NCBI GenBank assembly: GCA_037445735.1
Contig: JBBIJY010000031.1
Coordinates: 1-27,821, forward strand
Origin: Armatimonadota bacterium
GTDB lineage: Bacteria; Armatimonadota; Fimbriimonadia; Fimbriimonadales; GBS-DC
DNA: 27,821 nucleotides
Direction: 5' to 3'
The notes beneath the pieces were generated by a model that did no database searches, was not told the DNA's origin, and saw nothing but the letters and a program-made list of their open reading frames with translations. Positions 8,480-26,137 of this stretch are shown here, in pieces. The position numbers were made by a program, and so were the translations under genes. Within the stretch, counting starts at the first letter, position 1. Every line of letters begins with the position of its first letter.

Positions 8480-9673
<1,194 letters not shown>

Positions 9674-9750: not shown

Positions 9751-12393
9751 TCAGCAATGGACTATGCCCGAATCGGTGTCCAAAAGATCACTGCGCTTTT
9801 CGATTTTCGGTATCCACACCGTGAAGATGGAGCCACCTTCAGCAGGGCAGTCGACGCGCACTTCGCCGTGATGCGCCTGCACAATCTTTTGGACGATACT
9901 CAGCCCCAGTCCGGTTCCGCGCGTGCGGGTGGTGTAGAAGGGCGTGAAGATTTTTTCCCGGATTTCGGGTGGGATGCCCGTGCCGGTGTCCTGCACCTGC
10001 AGGTAGATTTTGCCGCTGGCTTCGCCGGCTCGCAGGGTGAGCTGTCCGCCGTTGGGCATCGCCTGGACAGCGTTCTGGATGAGGTTACGCAGCACCTGTT
10101 CGATGCGGGCGGGGTCGAGCCATGCAGTGGGTTCGCCCTCCACCTCCAGTGTTGTGGCGATGCCCGTCTCCTTGAAGTAGGGGGCGAGCGCGGCGAGCAG
10201 CCGCTCCAGCATCGGGCGCAGAGCGACCAGCCGCCAGCTCGGCACGAGGGGGCGGGCAAACTCCAGAAACTCATCGGCGATTTCGTTCAGGCGGGCGACC
10301 TCCTGACGGATGATGTCCACATAGGTATGCACGGGTTCGGGCAGGTTCTCTTCCTGGGCGAGCAGGTCGGCAGCGCCCTTGAGGGCGGTGAGCGGATTGC
10401 GCAGCTCGTGGGCGATGGTGGCGGTCATCTGCCCGATTTCAGCAAGGCGCTCCATCTGGCTCAGGCGCGTCTCCAGGCGGTGATACTCGGTGATGTCTTC
10501 GAAGACCACCACTGCACCGCCAGGCTCATCGGAGCCACGCATCAGCAGGGGCGTGATGGTGAAGTTGAGGATTTGCGGGCTATCCCCGGCGCCAGGTGCG
10601 GGGGCGAGCGGGAGGCGATAGAGCGTGTGGGCGCCACCGCCTTTCAACACCGCATCGAGCGCGTGCTGAAGGCTCTGCAGGGAGTCGTCGGGCAAGCGCC
10701 CTTTCAGCCGACGGCACAGCTCCGTGTAGGGCTTGCCGACCAGCTCGCGCCCGCGAATGCCCATGATGGCTCGCGCCGCGCGGTTCCATGTGGTGATGAC
10801 ACCCGCCGCGTTCAGCGTGAACATGCCCGCGCCGAGACTGCGCAGAATGTTGTTGCGGAACGCGGCGAGGTTCTGAATCTCGCGATAGCGCTGCTCCATC
10901 TCGCGATAGAGGCGCGCGTTCTCGATGGCGATCCCCGCTTGCGCCACGAACACGCTCAGCAGGTCGACCTGCTCCATCGTGAACAGCCCGCTGCGGTCCT
11001 CATTATCAGCCAGCACGACCCCGATACAGCTGCCGTGAACCACAATCGGCAGCACGCAATAGCGGTTCGCGCCGATGGTGCGCCCGAAGCCCCGAATGGG
11101 TTGAAGCTCGCTGCGCGCGTCGTGAATCACCAGCGGCATCTTCTTCCTGGCGACGATGCCAATCACGCCCTGACCCTTGCGGAAACCGCGTGGGGGGAAC
11201 ATTTCGCGGCTGTAGCCGCGCAACAGATGCGGCTGATAGGTGCGCGACGATTCGCTTTGCAAAAACAGTGCATAGCGCGAGAAGCCGACCACCTGCTCGA
11301 TCTGGCGCCCGACCAGCTCCAGCAGCGTTTCGATGTCCAGCACCGCGCTGACCACCTGCGAGAGGTTAACCAGCGTGGTCAGCTCCTGCACGCGCCGATG
11401 GAGGTCGGCATAGAGGCGGGCGTTCTCGATGGCGAGCGCAATCAGGCTGGCGAAGATGGAGAAGGCGTGCACATCCTCGCTGGTGAACGGCGGCGCGGGC
11501 TGAAGGCGGCGGATGGTCAGCACGCCGAACACCTCGCCCTGCCGATTGCGCAGCGGCACGCAGATCGAACTGCTGATTTCGGGGCGCGGCACCACGCCCG
11601 CCAGCTCTGGATGCTGGCTCGGATCGCTGACGAGGATGGTCTCGCCCGTCAGTGCGACCCGTCCCGCGATGCCCTCGCCGAGCGGAATGCGTACATGCGA
11701 CACAATCTCGGGTGCCAGTCCGTAGCTGGCGGCAATCGTGAGCGCGTTCTCGTCGGGCTGGAGCAGCATCAGCGTGCAGGCTTGCGCGTCCATCGCGTGC
11801 GCGGCGCGCTCCGTCACCAGCTGCAGGAAGCGTTCCAGCCCCTGCTGGGAAGAGGCTAACGCCGTCTCGTACAGCGTGGCAACGGTCAGCAACCGCCGTT
11901 CCGACTGGCGCCGCAGCGCGTCGATCTCGCGATGGAGCTGCTCCTGACGGCTCAAAAGGCGCACCAGCTCCACGACGGCATCCCAGACGCCATCGCTCGC
12001 CTGCTCGCGCGGGATGCAGAGCGCGTAGAACAGACCATGCGCAGCGAGCGGCTCAACACGCCAGCAATAGCGCGAATCGGAAGATGGAGTGAACTTCTTG
12101 CCCGTACCCTCTCCCCCGCTGGGGGAGAGGGTTTTAGCAACGCCCTCTCCCCCGCTGGGGGCTTCGGAAGTCGCTTCCGCGAATATCTCCGTTAGCTGAG
12201 TTCGCACTTCGGCAACTGGCAGCACGGGCGCCTGCATGAGAACGAGAGGGGGCGCGCTAGGGTTCCGCAGGATGAGACCGTTCCATGCGCCAGTGCGCTC
12301 GGCGATCTGGCGCAGCAGGTTCGCCAGGTCTTCGGTGCCGACCCCGCTTGTGGCAGTGCGCATCAGCTCGGTGAGCCAGCTCAGTTGCGCCAT
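9751..12393 (-). CDS. Multi-sensor histidine kinase (GAF-GAF-PAS-HisKA-HATPase)
   Basis: Two GAF domains ending in AIENARLY, a PAS domain (ITTWNRAARAIMG), H-box IAHELRNPL, N-box NLIQNAVQAM, DTGTGI and GTGLGL; GGAGG RBS. Confidence 0.93.
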   Translation of the reverse strand: MAQLSWLTELMRTATSGVGTEDLANLLRQIAERTGAWNGLILRNPSAPPLVLMQAPVLPVAEVRTQLTEIFAEATSEAPSGGEGVAKTLSPSGGEGTGKKFTPSSDSRYCWRVEPLAAHGLFYALCIPREQASDGVWDAVVELVRLLSRQEQLHREIDALRRQSERRLLTVATLYETALASSQQGLERFLQLVTERAAHAMDAQACTLMLLQPDENALTIAASYGLAPEIVSHVRIPLGEGIAGRVALTGETILVSDPSQHPELAGVVPRPEISSSICVPLRNRQGEVFGVLTIRRLQPAPPFTSEDVHAFSIFASLIALAIENARLYADLHRRVQELTTLVNLSQVVSAVLDIETLLELVGRQIEQVVGFSRYALFLQSESSRTYQPHLLRGYSREMFPPRGFRKGQGVIGIVARKKMPLVIHDARSELQPIRGFGRTIGANRYCVLPIVVHGSCIGVVLADNEDRSGLFTMEQVDLLSVFVAQAGIAIENARLYREMEQRYREIQNLAAFRNNILRSLGAGMFTLNAAGVITTWNRAARAIMGIRGRELVGKPYTELCRRLKGRLPDDSLQSLQHALDAVLKGGGAHTLYRLPLAPAPGAGDSPQILNFTITPLLMRGSDEPGGAVVVFEDITEYHRLETRLSQMERLAEIGQMTATIAHELRNPLTALKGAADLLAQEENLPEPVHTYVDIIRQEVARLNEIADEFLEFARPLVPSWRLVALRPMLERLLAALAPYFKETGIATTLEVEGEPTAWLDPARIEQVLRNLIQNAVQAMPNGGQLTLRAGEASGKIYLQVQDTGTGIPPEIREKIFTPFYTTRTRGTGLGLSIVQKIVQAHHGEVRVDCPAEGGSIFTVWIPKIEKRSDLLDTDSGIVHC
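12101..12161. repeat. BoxC/REP-like repeat inside the kinase ORF (in frame)
   Basis: CCCGTACCCTCTCCCCCGCTGGGGGAGAGGG plus a second partial copy; reads as [20 protein letters not shown] on the minus strand. Confidence 0.85.
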
Positions 12394-12418
12394 CACCGCC
12401 TCCTATAATACCCCCTGC

Positions 12419-20660: not shown

Positions 20661-21509
20661 ATGATGCAGACTTTGCCGGTCAACCGTTCGAGCCAGCTTC
20701 AGGCGGCGCAGGTGCTGATGTGTGCGCCCAGCGCGTACGATCTGCTCTATGAGATCAACGCCTGGATGCATCTCAGCAACCGTCCCGATAAGCGGCTGGC
20801 GTGGCAGCAGTGGGAACAGCTCTATCAGGTGCTGACCAGCGAGGTCGGTGTCCCGGTGGCGCTGATTGAGCAGGCGCAGGAGGCGCCCGATATGGTGTTC
20901 ACGGCGAACGCGGGTCTGCCCCTGCCGGGCAAACGCATCGTGCTGTCGCGCTTCCGCCACCCCGAACGACAGGTGGAGGAACCCTATTTTGAGCAGTTCT
21001 TCCGCTCGCACGGCTTCACGGTGCATCTGCTGCCGCCCGACTGCGCCTTTGAGGGTGAGGGCGACGCCTTCTATCTCGGCGACTTCATCGTGGCTGGCTA
21101 CCGCAAACGCACCGACATCTGCGCCCATCGCCACCTCAGCGAACTCACAGGTCTCGAAACGCTCAGCCTCGAACTGGTGGACGACCGCTGGTATCACCTT
21201 GACACCTGCTTCTTGCCGCTGGGTGGACGGCTGGTCGCCTATTACCCCGAAGCGTTCGACTGGTACGCTCGCCGCGTGATTCAGGAACATTTTGAGGTGA
21301 TCCCTGTCAGCCCCGAAGAGGCGTTGCGATTCGCGTGCAACTCGGTGGTCATCGGCAAGCATGTGGTGATGCCCGCAGGCTGCCCCATCCTGCGCTTTCA
21401 TCTGGAGGAGCGCGGCTTCCGCGTGCATGAGGTGCCGATGAGCGAGTTCATCAAATCGGGCGGCGCGTGCAAGTGCCTCACGCTCTACCTGCCCGAGCCC
21501 ATCGGCTAA
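20661..21509 (+). CDS. Amidinotransferase/pentein-fold enzyme (dimethylargininase or ArgZ-like arginine dihydrolase domain)
   Basis: LMC.P, INAWM, PDMVFTANAG, FRHPERQ.E, FEGEGD, YHLDTCF, EFIKSGGACKCLTL; GGAGG RBS before ATG 20661. Confidence 0.88.
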   Translation: MMQTLPVNRSSQLQAAQVLMCAPSAYDLLYEINAWMHLSNRPDKRLAWQQWEQLYQVLTSEVGVPVALIEQAQEAPDMVFTANAGLPLPGKRIVLSRFRHPERQVEEPYFEQFFRSHGFTVHLLPPDCAFEGEGDAFYLGDFIVAGYRKRTDICAHRHLSELTGLETLSLELVDDRWYHLDTCFLPLGGRLVAYYPEAFDWYARRVIQEHFEVIPVSPEEALRFACNSVVIGKHVVMPAGCPILRFHLEERGFRVHEVPMSEFIKSGGACKCLTLYLPEPIG

Positions 21510-22516
21510 CGACGCTCATACCACGCCTGCACGAACTGCCTGTATTCGACCTGCTCCTGCAGGATGCGCTGCCACCAGTCGCGATTCTGCACATACCACA
21601 GCACCGTCTCGCGCAGCGCGTCCTCAAAATCCGCCTGCGGCTGCCAGCCCAGCGCACGGATGCGACGGGTGTCCAGCGCGTAGCGACGGTCGTGCCCCGG
21701 ACGGTCCGTCACGAACTGGATCAGCGTCTCGGGCTTGCCGAGAATGGTCAGAATGCGGCGGGTGATTTCGAGGTTCGTGCGCTCGTTGTTCGCCGCGATG
21801 TTGTAGATGGAGCCGACCTGACCCCTGTGCAGCACAAGATCGAGCGCACGCACATGGTCATCCACATAGAGCCAGTCGCGCACCTGCTGCCCGTCGCCAT
21901 AGAGGGGCAGCGGCTGATCCTGAAGGGCGCGCGTGACGAAGAAGGGGATCAGCTTTTCGGGGTACTGGCGCGGTCCGAAGGTGTTGCTGGGGCGCACGAT
22001 CAGCACGGGCAGCCCGTAGGTTCGGTGATAGGCTTGCGCCAGCAGGTCGGCGCCCGCCTTGCTGGCGGCGTAGGGACTGCTCGGACGCAGGGGCGAATCC
22101 TCCGTGCAGGCGCCTTCCCCAACGGGACCATACACCTCGTCGGTGCTGACATGCAGAAACCGTTCGACGCCCGCCTGCCGCGCCGCCTCCAGCACCATGA
22201 AGGTGCCATACACATCGGTGGTGATGAAGGCGTCGGGGTTCAGGATGGAGCGGTCGACATGCGTTTCGGCAGCTAAGTGTGCCACGAGTTGCACGCCCTG
22301 CATCGCGGTCTGCACCGCCTGACGGTCGCGCACATCGGCATGGATGAACTCAAAGCGCGGGTCGCCCTCCGCTTCCTTCAAATTCTCGCGGTTGCCCGCG
22401 TAGGTGAGCGCATCCAGCACACGCACCCGATAGTCGGGATAGTGGCGCAGCAGATAGAGGGTCAGATGGCTGCCGATGAAGCCTGCGCCGCCCGTGATCA
22501 GCACCGTTTGCCCCAT
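21506..22516 (-). CDS. rfbB: dTDP-glucose 4,6-dehydratase
   Basis: ITGGAGFIGSH, DALTYAGN, AAETHVDRSI, VSTDEVYG, YAASK, QYPEKLIP, DRPGHDRRYA. Confidence 0.96.
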   Translation of the reverse strand: MGQTVLITGGAGFIGSHLTLYLLRHYPDYRVRVLDALTYAGNRENLKEAEGDPRFEFIHADVRDRQAVQTAMQGVQLVAHLAAETHVDRSILNPDAFITTDVYGTFMVLEAARQAGVERFLHVSTDEVYGPVGEGACTEDSPLRPSSPYAASKAGADLLAQAYHRTYGLPVLIVRPSNTFGPRQYPEKLIPFFVTRALQDQPLPLYGDGQQVRDWLYVDDHVRALDLVLHRGQVGSIYNIAANNERTNLEITRRILTILGKPETLIQFVTDRPGHDRRYALDTRRIRALGWQPQADFEDALRETVLWYVQNRDWWQRILQEQVEYRQFVQAWYERR

Positions 22517-22551
22517 GTTTTGAGCATACCCGACAGCGAAGGGGCGGCGTG

Positions 22552-22567
22552 TGGCACAAAAGTTGCT
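22552..22567 (+). promoter_or_regulatory. Sigma-54 (-24/-12) promoter
   Basis: TGGCAC-AAAAG-TTGCT with canonical spacing (GG 22553-54, GC 22565-66); predicted +1 at G22578. Confidence 0.8.
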
Positions 22568-22577
22568 GCAAGGGAAG

Positions 22578-22701
22578 GTAGGGGAGCAAAGCCTGCCCTC
22601 GCAAGGAGGTTGCCACTCTCGACAACCTCAGCGCGAGGTGAATCTACGGGCAATCGTAGCATGAAGAAAATGCCGGGGCACCGCCCCGGCATTTTCTTTT
22701 T
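22578..22701 (+). ncRNA. Candidate sigma-54-dependent small RNA (~124 nt, four stem-loops)
   Basis: Lies between the sigma-54 promoter and the terminator. Stems: GTAGG/CCTGC; CCTCGC/GCGAGG enclosing GAGGTTG/CAACCTC; CTACGG-GCAA-TCGTAG; terminator stem. No credible ORF. Confidence 0.65.
22664..22701 (+). terminator. Rho-independent terminator (potentially bidirectional)
   Basis: Perfect 16-bp stem AAGAAAATGCCGGGGC-acc-GCCCCGGCATTTTCTT followed by TTT. Confidence 0.85.
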
Positions 22702-22726
22702 GCGAGCGCCAGAGGGAGCCGCTAAG

Positions 22727-22969
22727 CCCCTCTCCCCCACGGGCGGAGAGGGACTTAATTGTTCCCTCTCCCCTCTGGGGAGAGGGCTGGGGTGAGGGGT
22801 TTTCTGCAAGCATGCGGGATATAGCCCCCTCACCCGTACCCTCTCCCCCGCTGGGGGAGAGGGGCTGATTTGTCCCCTCACCCGTACCCTCTCCCCCGCT
22901 GGGGGAGAGGGCTTGGTTTCTCCCTCTCCCCTCTGGGGAGAGGGGCGGGGTGAGGGGCATCCTGTCCTC
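22727..22969. repeat. Cluster of about 5 BoxC/REP-like palindromes; 22825-22969 is the left copy of a ~145-bp direct repeat
   Basis: Multiple CCCTCTCCCC...GGGGAGAGGG units; 22825-22969 nearly identical to 26267-26410. Confidence 0.9.
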
Positions 22970-24217: not shown

Positions 24218-25894
24218 TCACATCTCCAGCTCCGGCTGGCGGGTCTCTGCCCGAACCCGCTCCGCTGACTGCACACCCGCCAGCAACGCCGCCGCAGGGA
24301 TTGCAAACCCCTTGCCTTCAAGCAACTCCCCGACTGTGCGTATCTGCAGCCGCGCCAGCCGAACCCTCCCCAGCGGCGTCGTGTAAAACCCCGCCTGCTC
24401 CGCCTCGCGCACCATGTCGCGGGTGGGCGGCTCCAGCGTTACAAAAAGCCCCAGCGTTGCCTGCTCCCGCTCCAGCACGCCCCGAAAGTCGCGAATGTCC
24501 TTGACCCCCACGCGCCCGCTCTTGACCTGAATCACCACCTTTTTGGGGTGTTCGCGCGGGTTGTCGGTGAAGTAGAGCATCCCGTCAATCCCCGTGTCGG
24601 CGCCTTTTTTCTGCTGGTAGGGGAACGCCCGCGGAATCAGTCCAATCGCCCACTTCTGGAACTCGTCGCGGTCTTGAAGCGCCAGCGCCCGCGCGTCGGC
24701 GACGGTGGTCGGCTCGCCAATCACGCGATAGTCTTTGCCTTCCTTGAGGTCAAACATATCGCTGAGGCGGTACTTGATGAGCGCAATCGCGAGGTGGGTG
24801 ATGTCGATACCAATCCACTGGCGTTTGAGTTTGTGGGCGGCGACGATTGCGGTTCCGCAACCGCAGAAGGGGTCTAACACGGTATCGCCCTCGTTGCTGG
24901 ATGCCTGGATGATACGCTCCAGCAGGGCGAGCGGCTTCTGCGTGGGGTAGCCGAGACGCTCGCGGGCGTGCGCGCCAATGGGCTGAATATCCGTGATGAC
25001 ATCCTGAATCGGGTTGCCCGCGCTCATCTCCAGGTAGCGTTTATACCGCGGCACGCGCCCTTTCTTGGGCCAGACGATGTAGCCAGCGGCTTCGAGGGCG
25101 TCCAGTTTCTCCTGCACGCTCATTTGCTGGGCGCGCTCCCTGCCCACCACTTGTTCCACCAGCGGTTGGGGCACTGCCCAGTGCCGACCGACCTGAGTCG
25201 GGTCTACCCCCTTCCACGGCATGCCTGAGTCGCCTTTCGTTGTGCCCGCGCCAGTCAGAGTCACCAGGTGGTACCTGCCGCGCTCGTCCTGAAAGCGATA
25301 ACATTTCTCTATGTAATTCGGGTCGAGTGCCTCGTAGACGCGATTCCATGTATAGTTTTCGCTTTTGGAGTAGAACAGCAGCACATCGTGAATGGGTCCC
25401 CAGCGTTTTGCGCCGCCGTGCGCGCCCGTCCGCTTCCATACAATCTCGTTGCGAAAGTTGCGCGCCCCGAAAATCACATCCAGCATCACCTTCAGGTAGT
25501 GGCTTGCCGTCGGGTCGCAGTGCAAATACAAACTCCCCGTCGGCTTCAGCACCCGGTGCAGTTCCACCAGCCGCGGCGCCATCATCACGAGGTACGCTGT
25601 GAGGTCGTTGCGTCCTAAGGTGCGCACAAACCCCTGCACCAGTTCCACCAGCGCGGGCAGCGTACAGGTTTCGCAGAAGTCCACATAGGCGCGCTCGCTC
25701 CACTGCCAGGTGTCGGTGAAGGCTTTGATTTGCGCCTGCGCGGGTTCGCCCGACTGCTCCCGAAAGAGCAGGTTGTAGTCGCGCTGGCTGTTGAACGGGG
25801 GGTCGAGGTAGATGAGGTCTACGCTTTCGTCCCCGATATGTTTGCGCAGGACCTCCAGATTGTCACCATAGTAGAGCGTGTTAGCAGGGTGCAT
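24218..25894 (-). CDS. Beta-class N6A/N4C DNA methyltransferase fused to a C-terminal Mrr-like PD-(D/E)xK nuclease domain
   Basis: LYYGDNL, DLIYLDPPFNS (motif IV), YPTQKP, VLDPFCGCGT (motif I); C-terminus ADTGIDG...VVIQVKSG...IRDFRGVL. Confidence 0.92.
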   Translation of the reverse strand: MHPANTLYYGDNLEVLRKHIGDESVDLIYLDPPFNSQRDYNLLFREQSGEPAQAQIKAFTDTWQWSERAYVDFCETCTLPALVELVQGFVRTLGRNDLTAYLVMMAPRLVELHRVLKPTGSLYLHCDPTASHYLKVMLDVIFGARNFRNEIVWKRTGAHGGAKRWGPIHDVLLFYSKSENYTWNRVYEALDPNYIEKCYRFQDERGRYHLVTLTGAGTTKGDSGMPWKGVDPTQVGRHWAVPQPLVEQVVGRERAQQMSVQEKLDALEAAGYIVWPKKGRVPRYKRYLEMSAGNPIQDVITDIQPIGAHARERLGYPTQKPLALLERIIQASSNEGDTVLDPFCGCGTAIVAAHKLKRQWIGIDITHLAIALIKYRLSDMFDLKEGKDYRVIGEPTTVADARALALQDRDEFQKWAIGLIPRAFPYQQKKGADTGIDGMLYFTDNPREHPKKVVIQVKSGRVGVKDIRDFRGVLEREQATLGLFVTLEPPTRDMVREAEQAGFYTTPLGRVRLARLQIRTVGELLEGKGFAIPAAALLAGVQSAERVRAETRQPELEM

Positions 25895-25924
25895 GGCGAT
25901 AGAGATTGTACCTGATGGGTTCTG

Positions 25925-26029
25925 GTAGGGGCGTACGGCTGTGCGCCCGTGCGACGGCTGTGCGCCGTGCGATGGCTGTGCGCTTGTGTTGTGGATATGC
26001 GTGTAGGGGCGCAGTGAACACGCCCTTAC
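25925..26029 (+). repeat. GTAG-type REP elements with an internal 18-19-bp tandem expansion
   Basis: GTAGGGGCGTACGGCTGTGCGCCC (25925-25948), tandem A(C/T)GGCTGTGCGC(C)CGTGCG units to 25983, GTAGGGGCGCAGTGAACACGCCCTTAC (26003-26029). Confidence 0.75.
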
Positions 26030-26031
26030 CC

Positions 26032-26137
26032 GTTTCAATCCCCTGCGCAGGGGCGGTCCTTCGGGACACTTGCTCTACCACGACGGGAGGTTGTACGTTC
26101 TGTTTCAATCCCCTGCGCAGGGGCGGTCCTTCGGGAC
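26032..26137 (-). CRISPR. CRISPR mini-array: 2 identical 36-bp repeats and one 34-bp spacer
   Basis: Repeat on the minus strand GTCCCGAAGGACCGCCCCTGCGCAGGGGATTGAAAC, with internal CCCCTGCGCAGGGG palindrome and ATTGAAAC 3' end; copies at 26032-26067 and 26102-26137. Confidence 0.85.

Follow-up and report, generated by a model that had tools for sequence, protein, structure and literature searches.

A predicted sigma-54-dependent RNA of Fimbriimonadales bacteria with extended complementarity to a wider family of CU-rich small RNAs

What does the intergenic DNA divergent from rfbB encode in the stretch of 27,821 nucleotides (nt) analyzed here, and on what would its product act? The stretch, called the window below, is from an Armatimonadota bacterium (positions 1 to 27,821 of contig JBBIJY010000031.1, assembly GCA_037445735.1), and its genome, G000, is a metagenome-assembled genome (MAG) of the order Fimbriimonadales (2.78 Mb, 62% G+C). 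A first-pass annotation made from the letters of the window had proposed an unannotated, self-terminated, sigma-54-driven non-coding RNA at positions 22552 to 22701 of the plus strand. Family-wide conservation, covariation, the presence of rpoN in the genome and the absence of any Rfam match bear this proposal out, and we consider it very likely, judging from sequence, that a real sigma-54-dependent non-coding RNA gene occupies 22552 to 22701 (+). The predicted 124-nt RNA, at 22578 to 22701 (+), is referred to here as S54. Its invariant 5' block is complementary to two other predicted small RNAs (sRNAs) of the same genome, CU-1 and CU-2. With moderate confidence we read S54 as a sigma-54-dependent sRNA sponge, or anti-sRNA, that would titrate CU-1 and CU-2 and would be made together with a regulon of PEP-CTERM and polysaccharide genes.

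The promoter of this gene, TGGCACAAAAGTTGCT (22552 to 22567, +), consists of a -24 element TGGCAC (22552 to 22557), a 5-nt spacer and a -12 element TTGCT (22563 to 22567). The C of the -12 GC lies at 22566, which by promoter geometry places the +1 near 22578; the exact box and the divergence from rfbB, both claimed in the first-pass annotation, are confirmed, its predicted start at G22578 agrees with this geometry, and rfbB is the adjacent divergent neighbor at 27 of 28 loci. By itself, the 16-nt box is no rarer than chance (1 match in the window versus 1.13 expected, with at most 1 mismatch), so the case for the promoter rests on its conservation. Across 28 genomes, 15 of its 16 positions are invariant, and the single variable position is A or G. 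There are 19 perfect TGGCAC-N5-TTGCW sites in G000, many of which share the extended form ...AAGTTGCTGC, and the extended box in the window is like that of the 18 other perfect boxes. According to a crude finder of open reading frames (ORFs), which linked a box to an ORF of at least 70 amino acids (aa) starting within 350 nt, 18 of the 19 perfect boxes lead to an ORF, and the site in the window is the sole exception. The presence of rpoN in the genome, on which the proposal depends, is also established (rpoN_sigma, 268.4 bits, E value of 7.5e-80, positions 9 to 433 of 434, essentially full length).

How widely is the element distributed? In what follows, f1 is the family of the window, f2 to f5 are other families of the order, and g3 is the largest genus within f1. 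A DNA search of 61 related genomes, comprising f1 members and 32 genomes from four other families, detected the promoter with the initial ~50 nt of the transcribed part in every other f1 genome except G004 (27 of 28) and nothing comparable to the promoter and 5' part in the 32 genomes of the four other families. When the promoter and RNA of 28 homologues are aligned, the invariant parts are the promoter and a block GG(A/G)GAGCAAAGCCTGCCCTC followed by AAGG(A/G)GG, while the remainder varies. This block is invariant across six genera, and it is better conserved than the adjacent enzyme, since the rfbB proteins of these genomes are only 72 to 81% identical, G002 aside. The comparison of rfbB-upstream regions in relatives that the first-pass annotation had suggested shows conservation of promoter, 5' block and terminator, with covariation in stem 2 and the terminator (see below).

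A covariance model of the S54 RNA without its promoter (R1) gives 82.2 bits at the window locus; over G000 and the other f1 genomes with a copy (27 of 28), its scores run from 58 to 102 bits. Among 122 genomes of other families, R1 finds one further credible copy, in G031 of family f4 (30.9 bits). This copy (L121; G031:C6:10083-10239, minus strand) is a divergent, low-G+C homologue with its own TGGCAC-N5-TTGT box and terminator and a core of GGAGAGCAGAGCCTGCCAC, and it does not adjoin rfbB. A pattern search for promoter plus core in all 228 genomes of the order gave matches in 26 of 28 f1 genomes plus G000, in 1 of 1 from f4, in 2 of 175 from f3, in 0 of 20 from f5 (a tally that includes G054, an unpublished genome without a match that supports no other claim) and in 0 of 3 from f2; the reversed pattern, used as a control, gave 0 matches in the 228 genomes. 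A matching element is carried by 27 public Fimbriimonadales/Armatimonadota records. Several weaker candidates were rejected: an R1 match at G004:C8 (27.6 bits), which is without a sigma-54 box and looks coding; weak R1 matches in f2 and at G031:C205, which are antisense of CU-1 genes; and weak R1 matches in G076 and G127, which have no box. The two f3 pattern matches and the G000 sites C1:70419 and C1:73323 have only the loose GAGCARARCC part and were taken as chance.

The minimum free energy (MFE) fold of 22578 to 22701 (+) has four hairpins (-62.5 kcal/mol, z = -6.15, with 0 of 200 shuffles as stable), located at 22578 to 22596, 22597 to 22638, 22644 to 22659 (with a GCAA loop) and 22663 to 22699. 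All four stem-loops of the first-pass annotation are therefore in the fold of the window's RNA, but only two of them, stem 2 and the terminator, are family-wide. The intrinsic terminator (22663 to 22701, +) has a G+C-rich stem of 17 pairs, 16 of them Watson-Crick and one G.U, followed by a T-run to 22701, in agreement with the earlier description of a terminator stem and T-run. In the 28-sequence alignment, on which all pair counts for S54 were made, compensatory double changes are present at 10 of 12 terminator pairs. A hairpin is found at the terminator position in all 28 homologues, 85 to 145 nt 3' of the box, and one of these is without a T-rich tail; the T-rich tail is on the plus strand in most homologues, and some g3 T-tracts are weak. 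The predicted homologues are 92 to 130 nt long.

Stem 2 (P2; 22597 to 22638, +) has a conserved base (22598 to 22602 with 22633 to 22637) in which 97.9% of cells are paired and in which 2 of 5 pairs show G-C/A-U and C-G/U-A double changes; its apical part is variable. As had been claimed, this covariation-supported stem sequesters most of the Shine-Dalgarno (SD)-like AAGGAGG at 22603 to 22609 (+), with 4 of the 7 bases paired. An AAGG[A/G][A/G]G-like motif is kept in 27 of 28 homologues, the exception being G008. Stem 3 with its GCAA tetraloop (22644 to 22659, +) is present in the window as described, but it is confined to the window's genus: it is present in G000 and G002, partial in G001 and absent from other genera. 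Stem 1 did not survive as a general structural element. Only 70.8% of its cells are paired, and two central pairs are broken in 18 to 20 of the 28 sequences, including all of g3. Stem 1 is not kept in g3, and its invariant 3' arm needs another explanation. An RNAalifold run on the promoter-containing alignment was discarded, as it paired untranscribed promoter DNA with RNA.

Does the element encode a peptide, or does it belong to a described RNA family? Among the 28 homologues no conserved ORF was found: 18 have no ORF of at least 10 aa with an SD-like motif, 2 have no ORF of at least 10 aa at all, and the remaining ORFs are non-homologous. This rules out a conserved small ORF in S54 and agrees with the earlier statement that no plausible ORF lies between promoter and terminator. 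An Rfam scan, one of the checks that had been proposed, gave 0 matches at gathering level in the window; with Rfam 15, the region 22480 to 22760 gave only chance-level matches at E values of up to 10, the best at no more than 21.9 bits versus gathering scores of 35 to 190.

An alternative to a free sRNA would be a leader or attenuator, under sigma-54 control, of protein genes on its 3' side, and the weak T-tracts of some g3 terminators would allow read-through into such genes. However, the genes 3' of the terminator change from genus to genus, and several possess promoter-like boxes of their own. In the window itself, the 16-bp G+C-rich terminator with its T-run is followed by repeats, and the next plus-strand ORF is without a family. 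We regard a leader function as the least probable of the alternatives considered here, with hardly any weight.

What, then, accounts for the invariance of the 5' block? In every f1 genome, two further loci contain sequences that resemble the block in the same sense, and on the opposite strand these loci are candidate small RNA genes. The first, CU-1 (G000:C27:18937-19008, +), is a predicted CU-rich RNA of ~70 nt that is preceded by an extended -10-like box. Its CCUUCCUUCCUU run is single-stranded, its terminator hairpin encloses a loop of 17 nt and ends in a U-tail, and its sequence hardly changes across the f1 genomes (29 of 29). The second, CU-2 (G000:C22:25623-25694, -), is also predicted to be ~70 nt and has the same loop as CU-1, a compensated stem and a CACCUCUCUU run. 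Relatives of this family, which were examined at loci L031 to L060, L089 to L108 and L123 to L128, number 1 to 3 copies per genome and have the 17-nt terminator loop (..UUUGCUCUCCUUU..) in common. In the CU terminator, 98.1% of cells are paired with frequent G.U pairs, and these G.U pairs together with the U-tail fix the strand. A covariance model of the CU family (R2) detects members in 84 of the 151 genomes sampled from the order (28 of 28 in f1, 3 of 3 in f2, 1 of 1 in f4, 14 of 20 in f5 and 37 of 98 in f3). No Rfam match was obtained for CU-1, CU-2 or the f4 homologue (at E values of up to 1 or up to 0.1), and the predicted CU sRNAs are a previously undescribed family that is absent from Rfam.

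The CU-rich single-stranded runs look like anti-Shine-Dalgarno seeds, and an anti-SD role of the CU sRNAs would follow from this resemblance. Complements of at least 10 nt to the CU seeds are uninformative in G000, where there are many coding matches and few at SD positions. The promoters of the CU-2 genes are of more than one kind. In four genera CU-2 is preceded by GGGAAC-N-CGTCT, or in full GGGAACTTTT-N-CGTCTA (L089 to L107; about 25700 to 25726 of contig C22 in G000), a box that resembles what we take to be the consensus of extracytoplasmic function (ECF) sigma promoters. In genera g2 and g6, a CU-2 copy has a sigma-70-like promoter, TTGACA/TATACT or TTGCAT/TAATCT. The GGAAC..CGTC pattern occurs at 8 sites in G000, of which only the one on C40, 5' of a lipoprotein-like ORF, is similar to the CU-2 promoter, and this pattern search of G000 assigned no sigma factor to that promoter.

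The resemblance to CU genes raises the question of which strand of the S54 element is functional. In stem 2 and the terminator there are G.U pairs; read from the opposite strand these would be A.C, and the plus strand is thereby fixed as the functional one. One might nevertheless suppose that the minus strand matters, as a decayed third CU-type sRNA or as the promoter or leader of rfbB, and that the sigma-54 box is coincidental: about 45 nt of the minus strand look like CU-1, the fold of that strand has a z score of -4.33, and at 27 of 28 loci the element accompanies rfbB. The minus-strand hairpin, though, has A.C mismatches where the plus strand has G.U, is not followed by a U-run and is lost in g3, and in most genomes downstream terminators with T-runs are found only on the plus strand. 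Moreover, the sigma-54 box is invariant and its extended form is identical to that of boxes 5' of protein genes, and in G008 and G031 the element lies away from rfbB. We consider a minus-strand function very improbable. Inspection also disposed of the idea that the conserved block holds a sigma-54 promoter reading the minus strand, as the GG-to-GC spacing is two bases too short.

On the plus strand, the invariant block at 22580 to 22597 (called helix A in its paired form) complements the terminators of CU-1 and CU-2 in their loop and 5' arm; within the S54 fold of G000 the same bases supply the loop of stem 1 and its 3' arm. Helix A in G000 would comprise 18 uninterrupted bp with CU-1 (one G.U) and 18 with CU-2 (two G.U). 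We compared the first 45 nt of S54 with the CU RNA of the same genome, leaving out locus L103, which is masked, and any genome for which S54 or the CU RNA had not been recovered. The longest uninterrupted helix is 16 to 18 bp in 27 of 27 genome pairs for CU-1 and in 18 of 18 for CU-2, versus a shuffle maximum of 14 to 15 bp (n = 500). The AAGGAGG motif would form a second helix, helix B, with the CU-rich, single-stranded seed of CU-1 and CU-2. Cofolding gains -13.7 kcal/mol with CU-1 and -12.6 kcal/mol with CU-2, compared with -2.6 ± 2.3 and -4.4 ± 2.1 kcal/mol for the respective dinucleotide shuffles. In a genome-wide seeded scan with nt 1 to 36 of S54, the best non-self sites of 11,468 windows are CU-1 (-56.2 kcal/mol) and CU-2 (-51.7 kcal/mol), which are also the only extended contiguous complements of the block in G000; the other sites are loop-rich.

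The few variants of the block keep the pairing. An A/G difference lies opposite a loop U (g3 versus other genera, and G031), a C-to-U change lies opposite a G (G008), and G.U pairs make up for the loss of 1 nt in G007; with the core GGAGAGCAGAGCCTGCCAC of the G031 copy, the complementarity reaches into the stem of CU-1. Stem 1 of G000 has a 9-nt loop whose sequence complements the 17-nt loop in the terminators of CU-1 and CU-2, while in g3 an 11-nt part of the block pairs entirely inside the CU terminator loop. Because both of these complement the CU terminator loop, it is plausible that pairing starts as a loop-loop contact. S54 is found only where CU RNAs occur, as all 28 genomes with a strong R1 match, and G031, also match R2; the reverse is not true. 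Hfq is encoded in G000 (C18). Taken as predicted, S54 is antisense in trans to a wider and older sRNA family.

Several observations weigh against reading S54 as a sponge of the CU RNAs. The transcription of S54 and of the CU RNAs, and the +1 and ends of S54, are predictions from sequence, the sequencing runs that came up for 22480 to 22760 being four DNA runs of one study and none of RNA, and the rpoN score is slightly below the curated cut-off of 277.35 bits. The pairing-compatible substitutions amount to only about four events and are suggestive. The third-best site in the genome-wide scan, although loop-rich, reaches -51.4 kcal/mol versus -51.7 kcal/mol for CU-2, reflecting a high background of duplex energies in a G+C-rich genome. 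The CU target segment includes 6 nt of the terminator stem, which would have to open, and helix B is absent in G008. G004 keeps CU-1 and CU-2 without a detectable S54 copy, and families f2, f5 and f3 have CU sRNAs without S54, from which it follows that the CU sRNAs do not need S54. Finally, the idea of a feed-forward arrangement in which CU sRNAs prefer mRNAs of the sigma-54 regulon had to be given up, as these mRNAs are not enriched for CU complementarity (17 versus 93 background translation-initiation regions; p = 0.17, 0.06 and 0.43), in what is a weak test with crude gene calls.

Some of these observations would be expected if S54 used the same 5' block to act on mRNAs or a protein, and if its complementarity to the CU RNAs were a functionless trace of descent from a CU-type gene copied in inverted orientation. 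The whole block is the reverse complement of the CU terminator region, as an inverted duplication would leave it, which also counts against the sponge; the CU sRNAs are widespread without S54; and alternative genomic sites at -51 to -47 kcal/mol come near CU-2. However, a block that is invariant in six genera whose rfbB proteins are 72 to 81% identical outside G002 is under selection, its variants keep pairing with the CU RNAs, and apart from CU-1 and CU-2 the genome offers the block no long unbroken complement, the other sites being loop-rich. The block is also SD-like, not anti-SD-like, which would make it a poor translational repressor. We consider such a relic unlikely, while giving it more weight than any other alternative.

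A protein partner that comes to mind is CsrA, which is encoded in the genome (92.8 bits). S54 could be a decoy of the CsrB/RsmZ kind in which GGAGAGC and AAGGAGG, about 20 nt apart, bind one CsrA dimer, and one of these two GGA motifs is in the stem 1 loop of G000. CsrB/RsmZ-type RNAs, by comparison, have many GGA motifs, mostly in hairpin loops, whereas S54 has just two. The conservation spans 17 contiguous nt and extends far past GGA, the hairpin that presents the first GGA is not kept in g3, and no Rfam CsrB/Rsm match appears even at E values of up to 10. A CsrA decoy is therefore highly unlikely in our judgment, though not quite to the degree of a minus-strand function.

The sponge reading of S54 leads to the following scheme, in which we infer both pairing in vivo and the direction of control. 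A stand-alone gene at 22552 to 22701 (+) would be transcribed by RNA polymerase with sigma-54 and ended by its intrinsic terminator, and it would be switched on by the sigma-54 activator encoded at 8480 to 9673 and its GAF/PAS kinase. S54 would be one member of a sigma-54 regulon that consists mostly of genes for PEP-CTERM proteins and for exporting polysaccharides, and its gene lies back to back with rfbB. The invariant 5' ~32 nt, with two SD-like motifs, GGAG(A)GCAAAGCCUGCC and AAGGAGG, would be the working part of S54. When the two-component system fires, S54 would base-pair with CU-1 and CU-2, probably beginning as a loop-loop contact with the large CU terminator loop. The resulting duplex of 16 to 18 bp plus about 7 bp would mask the CU seed and may expose the CU sRNAs to degradation, and mRNAs repressed by the CU sRNAs would be relieved. 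More tentatively, and as something we hold a little below an even chance, the parts may form a three-RNA module: one two-component system with sigma-54 would turn on PEP-CTERM/exopolysaccharide genes plus a sponge, whose two decoy SD motifs and loop-loop contact would neutralize order-wide anti-SD siblings, one of them under what is presumably an ECF-type promoter. If true, this module would wire envelope-stress and surface-polysaccharide programs together at the RNA level.

The activator at 8480 to 9673 (-) is a protein of 397 aa with receiver, AAA+ and lid regions and no DNA-binding helix-turn-helix (HTH). It matches PF00158 (Sigma54_activat) with 247 to 250 bits, and the four other matches in the genome score no more than 34 bits and are within long AAA+ proteins; against NtrC/AtoC-type profiles the activator is covered only to about position 392 of 461. 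It is the sole sigma-54 enhancer-binding protein of the genome, and its link to S54 holds by elimination on that ground, such that it would be the protein that activates the S54 promoter. Next to it, at 9751 to 12396 (-), is a sensor kinase with a GAF-GAF-PAS-HisKA-HATPase architecture (Pfam and NCBIfam; no equivalog cut-off reached), which is presumably its cognate kinase. The first-pass annotation had suggested S54 as the possible output of this kinase and activator about 13 kb away. The suggestion stands insofar as no other true activator is encoded in the genome; the proximity itself does not carry it. Five other f1 genomes that were checked each have exactly one sigma-54 activator, of 395 to 410 aa, but only in the same-genus genome is the activator within 13 kb of the RNA gene, and a conserved linkage between the two is ruled out. 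If so, a single enhancer-independent activator would serve every sigma-54 promoter of these bacteria.

Which genes share this form of control? We searched with Pfam 10 of the 17 distinct ORFs linked to sigma-54 boxes in G000. Four of them end in a PEP-CTERM motif (three above the cut-off and one at 20.5 versus 20.7 bits), and the remaining six are a Poly_export/SLBB exporter, a receiver-PilZ (REC-PilZ) protein, a sigma-70-family factor, a DAHP synthase, a GH130 protein and one without a family. It has been proposed that sigma-54 controls the cell exterior (PMC3162934), and the PEP-CTERM/polysaccharide content of the linked ORFs agrees with that idea. At C1:70419 and C1:73323 of G000 there are identical copies of a sigma-54 box and 5' leader, 2.9 kb apart, each preceding a DAHP-synthase-like ORF (176 aa for the first and 339 aa for the second); the pair looks like a partial tandem duplication.

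The regulon resembles that of PrsK/PrsR, the PEP-CTERM/exosortase system (TIGR02915/TIGR02916), in that genes for PEP-CTERM proteins and for a polysaccharide export protein lie behind sigma-54 boxes. However, the activator scores 390.8 bits against PEP_resp_reg, versus an equivalog cut-off of 502.6 bits, and is without an HTH, and the kinase scores 107 bits versus 300 bits for the PrsK-type equivalog. We know of no sRNA described as a member of the PrsK/PrsR regulon. As a predicted sigma-54-dependent RNA, S54 shows sequence features of a known class. Qrr, GlmY/GlmZ, CrcZ and Pxr have a -24/-12 promoter, an activator of the NtrC family, no ORF and an intrinsic terminator; they are, to our knowledge, all proteobacterial. 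S54 has no Rfam homology to them, belongs to the Armatimonadota and would depend on an activator without a DNA-binding domain. The predicted contact between S54 and the CU RNAs also has precedents. CopA/CopT and RNAI/RNAII are cis-encoded plasmid antisense pairs that make loop-loop ("kissing") contacts, which the stem 1 loop and the CU terminator loop recall; S54 and the CU RNAs differ from them in being encoded in trans, with their genes on separate contigs, and in the lack of conservation of stem 1. Like sponges of the SroC, AgvB, CrfA and QrrX type, S54 shows extended complementarity to the seed of its presumed partner, here 16 to 18 bp plus AAGGAGG.

The closest of these parallels is CrfA of Caulobacter crescentus, described as an RNA sponge of four sibling sRNAs, SisA to SisD (PMC12559287). 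As described there, CrfA, like S54 in our reading, is a separately transcribed, stress-induced sRNA that pairs with sibling sRNAs and masks their mRNA-binding site, in an organism with Hfq. The two RNAs are from different phyla and have no sequence or Rfam relationship; according to the same account the transcriptional regulation of CrfA is still to be determined (PMC12559287), whereas S54 has a sigma-54 promoter. The pairing of S54 also covers the terminator loop and arm of its partner, and S54 is a prediction, which CrfA is not. In Vibrio cholerae, QrrX is a sponge of the Qrr1 to Qrr4 sRNAs (as described in PMC12559287), and these siblings depend on sigma-54 and LuxO (bioRxiv 10.1101/2021.07.01.450815). 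QrrX, as these sources present it, resembles S54 in being a sponge of sibling sRNAs within a sigma-54-linked circuit. The polarity is reversed: the Qrr siblings are sigma-54 dependent, while here it is the presumed sponge S54, and the siblings have sigma-70-like promoters and what we take to be ECF-like ones.

What is new at this locus is the S54 family, the CU family and their complementarity; sigma-54-dependent sRNAs and sRNA sponges are known kinds. Both RNA families are new to Rfam. S54 is restricted to a single Fimbriimonadales family, apart from a weak match in another, and the CU-rich siblings are present in more than half of the genomes sampled from the order. A full-text literature search (without supplementary files) found no paper that is, judged by title, on sRNAs or regulatory RNAs of Armatimonadota. 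If our reading is right, sponge control of sibling sRNAs would extend from Proteobacteria (CrfA/Sis, QrrX/Qrr) to a deep-branching, mostly uncultured phylum, where it would be tied to a sigma-54 "cell exterior" regulon with a single activator lacking a DNA-binding domain. The proposed sRNA-sRNA interaction is specific and testable, and the covariance models and alignments are directly usable for annotating both RNAs in MAGs.

The neighbor of S54, rfbB (21506 to 22516, -), encodes dTDP-glucose 4,6-dehydratase (TIGR01181, 444.5 bits versus a cut-off of 365.1), and its start codon is 36 bp from the sigma-54 promoter. It is without an obvious SD sequence, and in most genomes a TATGCT/TATCCT hexamer lies 6 nt 5' of the ATG (window 22517 to 22535, minus strand; L002 to L026), which would fit a leaderless rfbB mRNA with a promoter that abuts the sigma-54 box. 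On the other side of the RNA gene, directly 3' of the terminator, the window has a G+C-rich cluster of palindromic repeats at 22720 to 22960 (CCCTCTCCCC..GGGGAGAGGG with GGGGTGAGGGG boxes), two of which score as terminator-like. Farther along, the minus-strand ORF at 24218 to 26038 encodes 606 aa in which an N6/N4 DNA methylase domain is fused to an Mrr-like restriction endonuclease domain.

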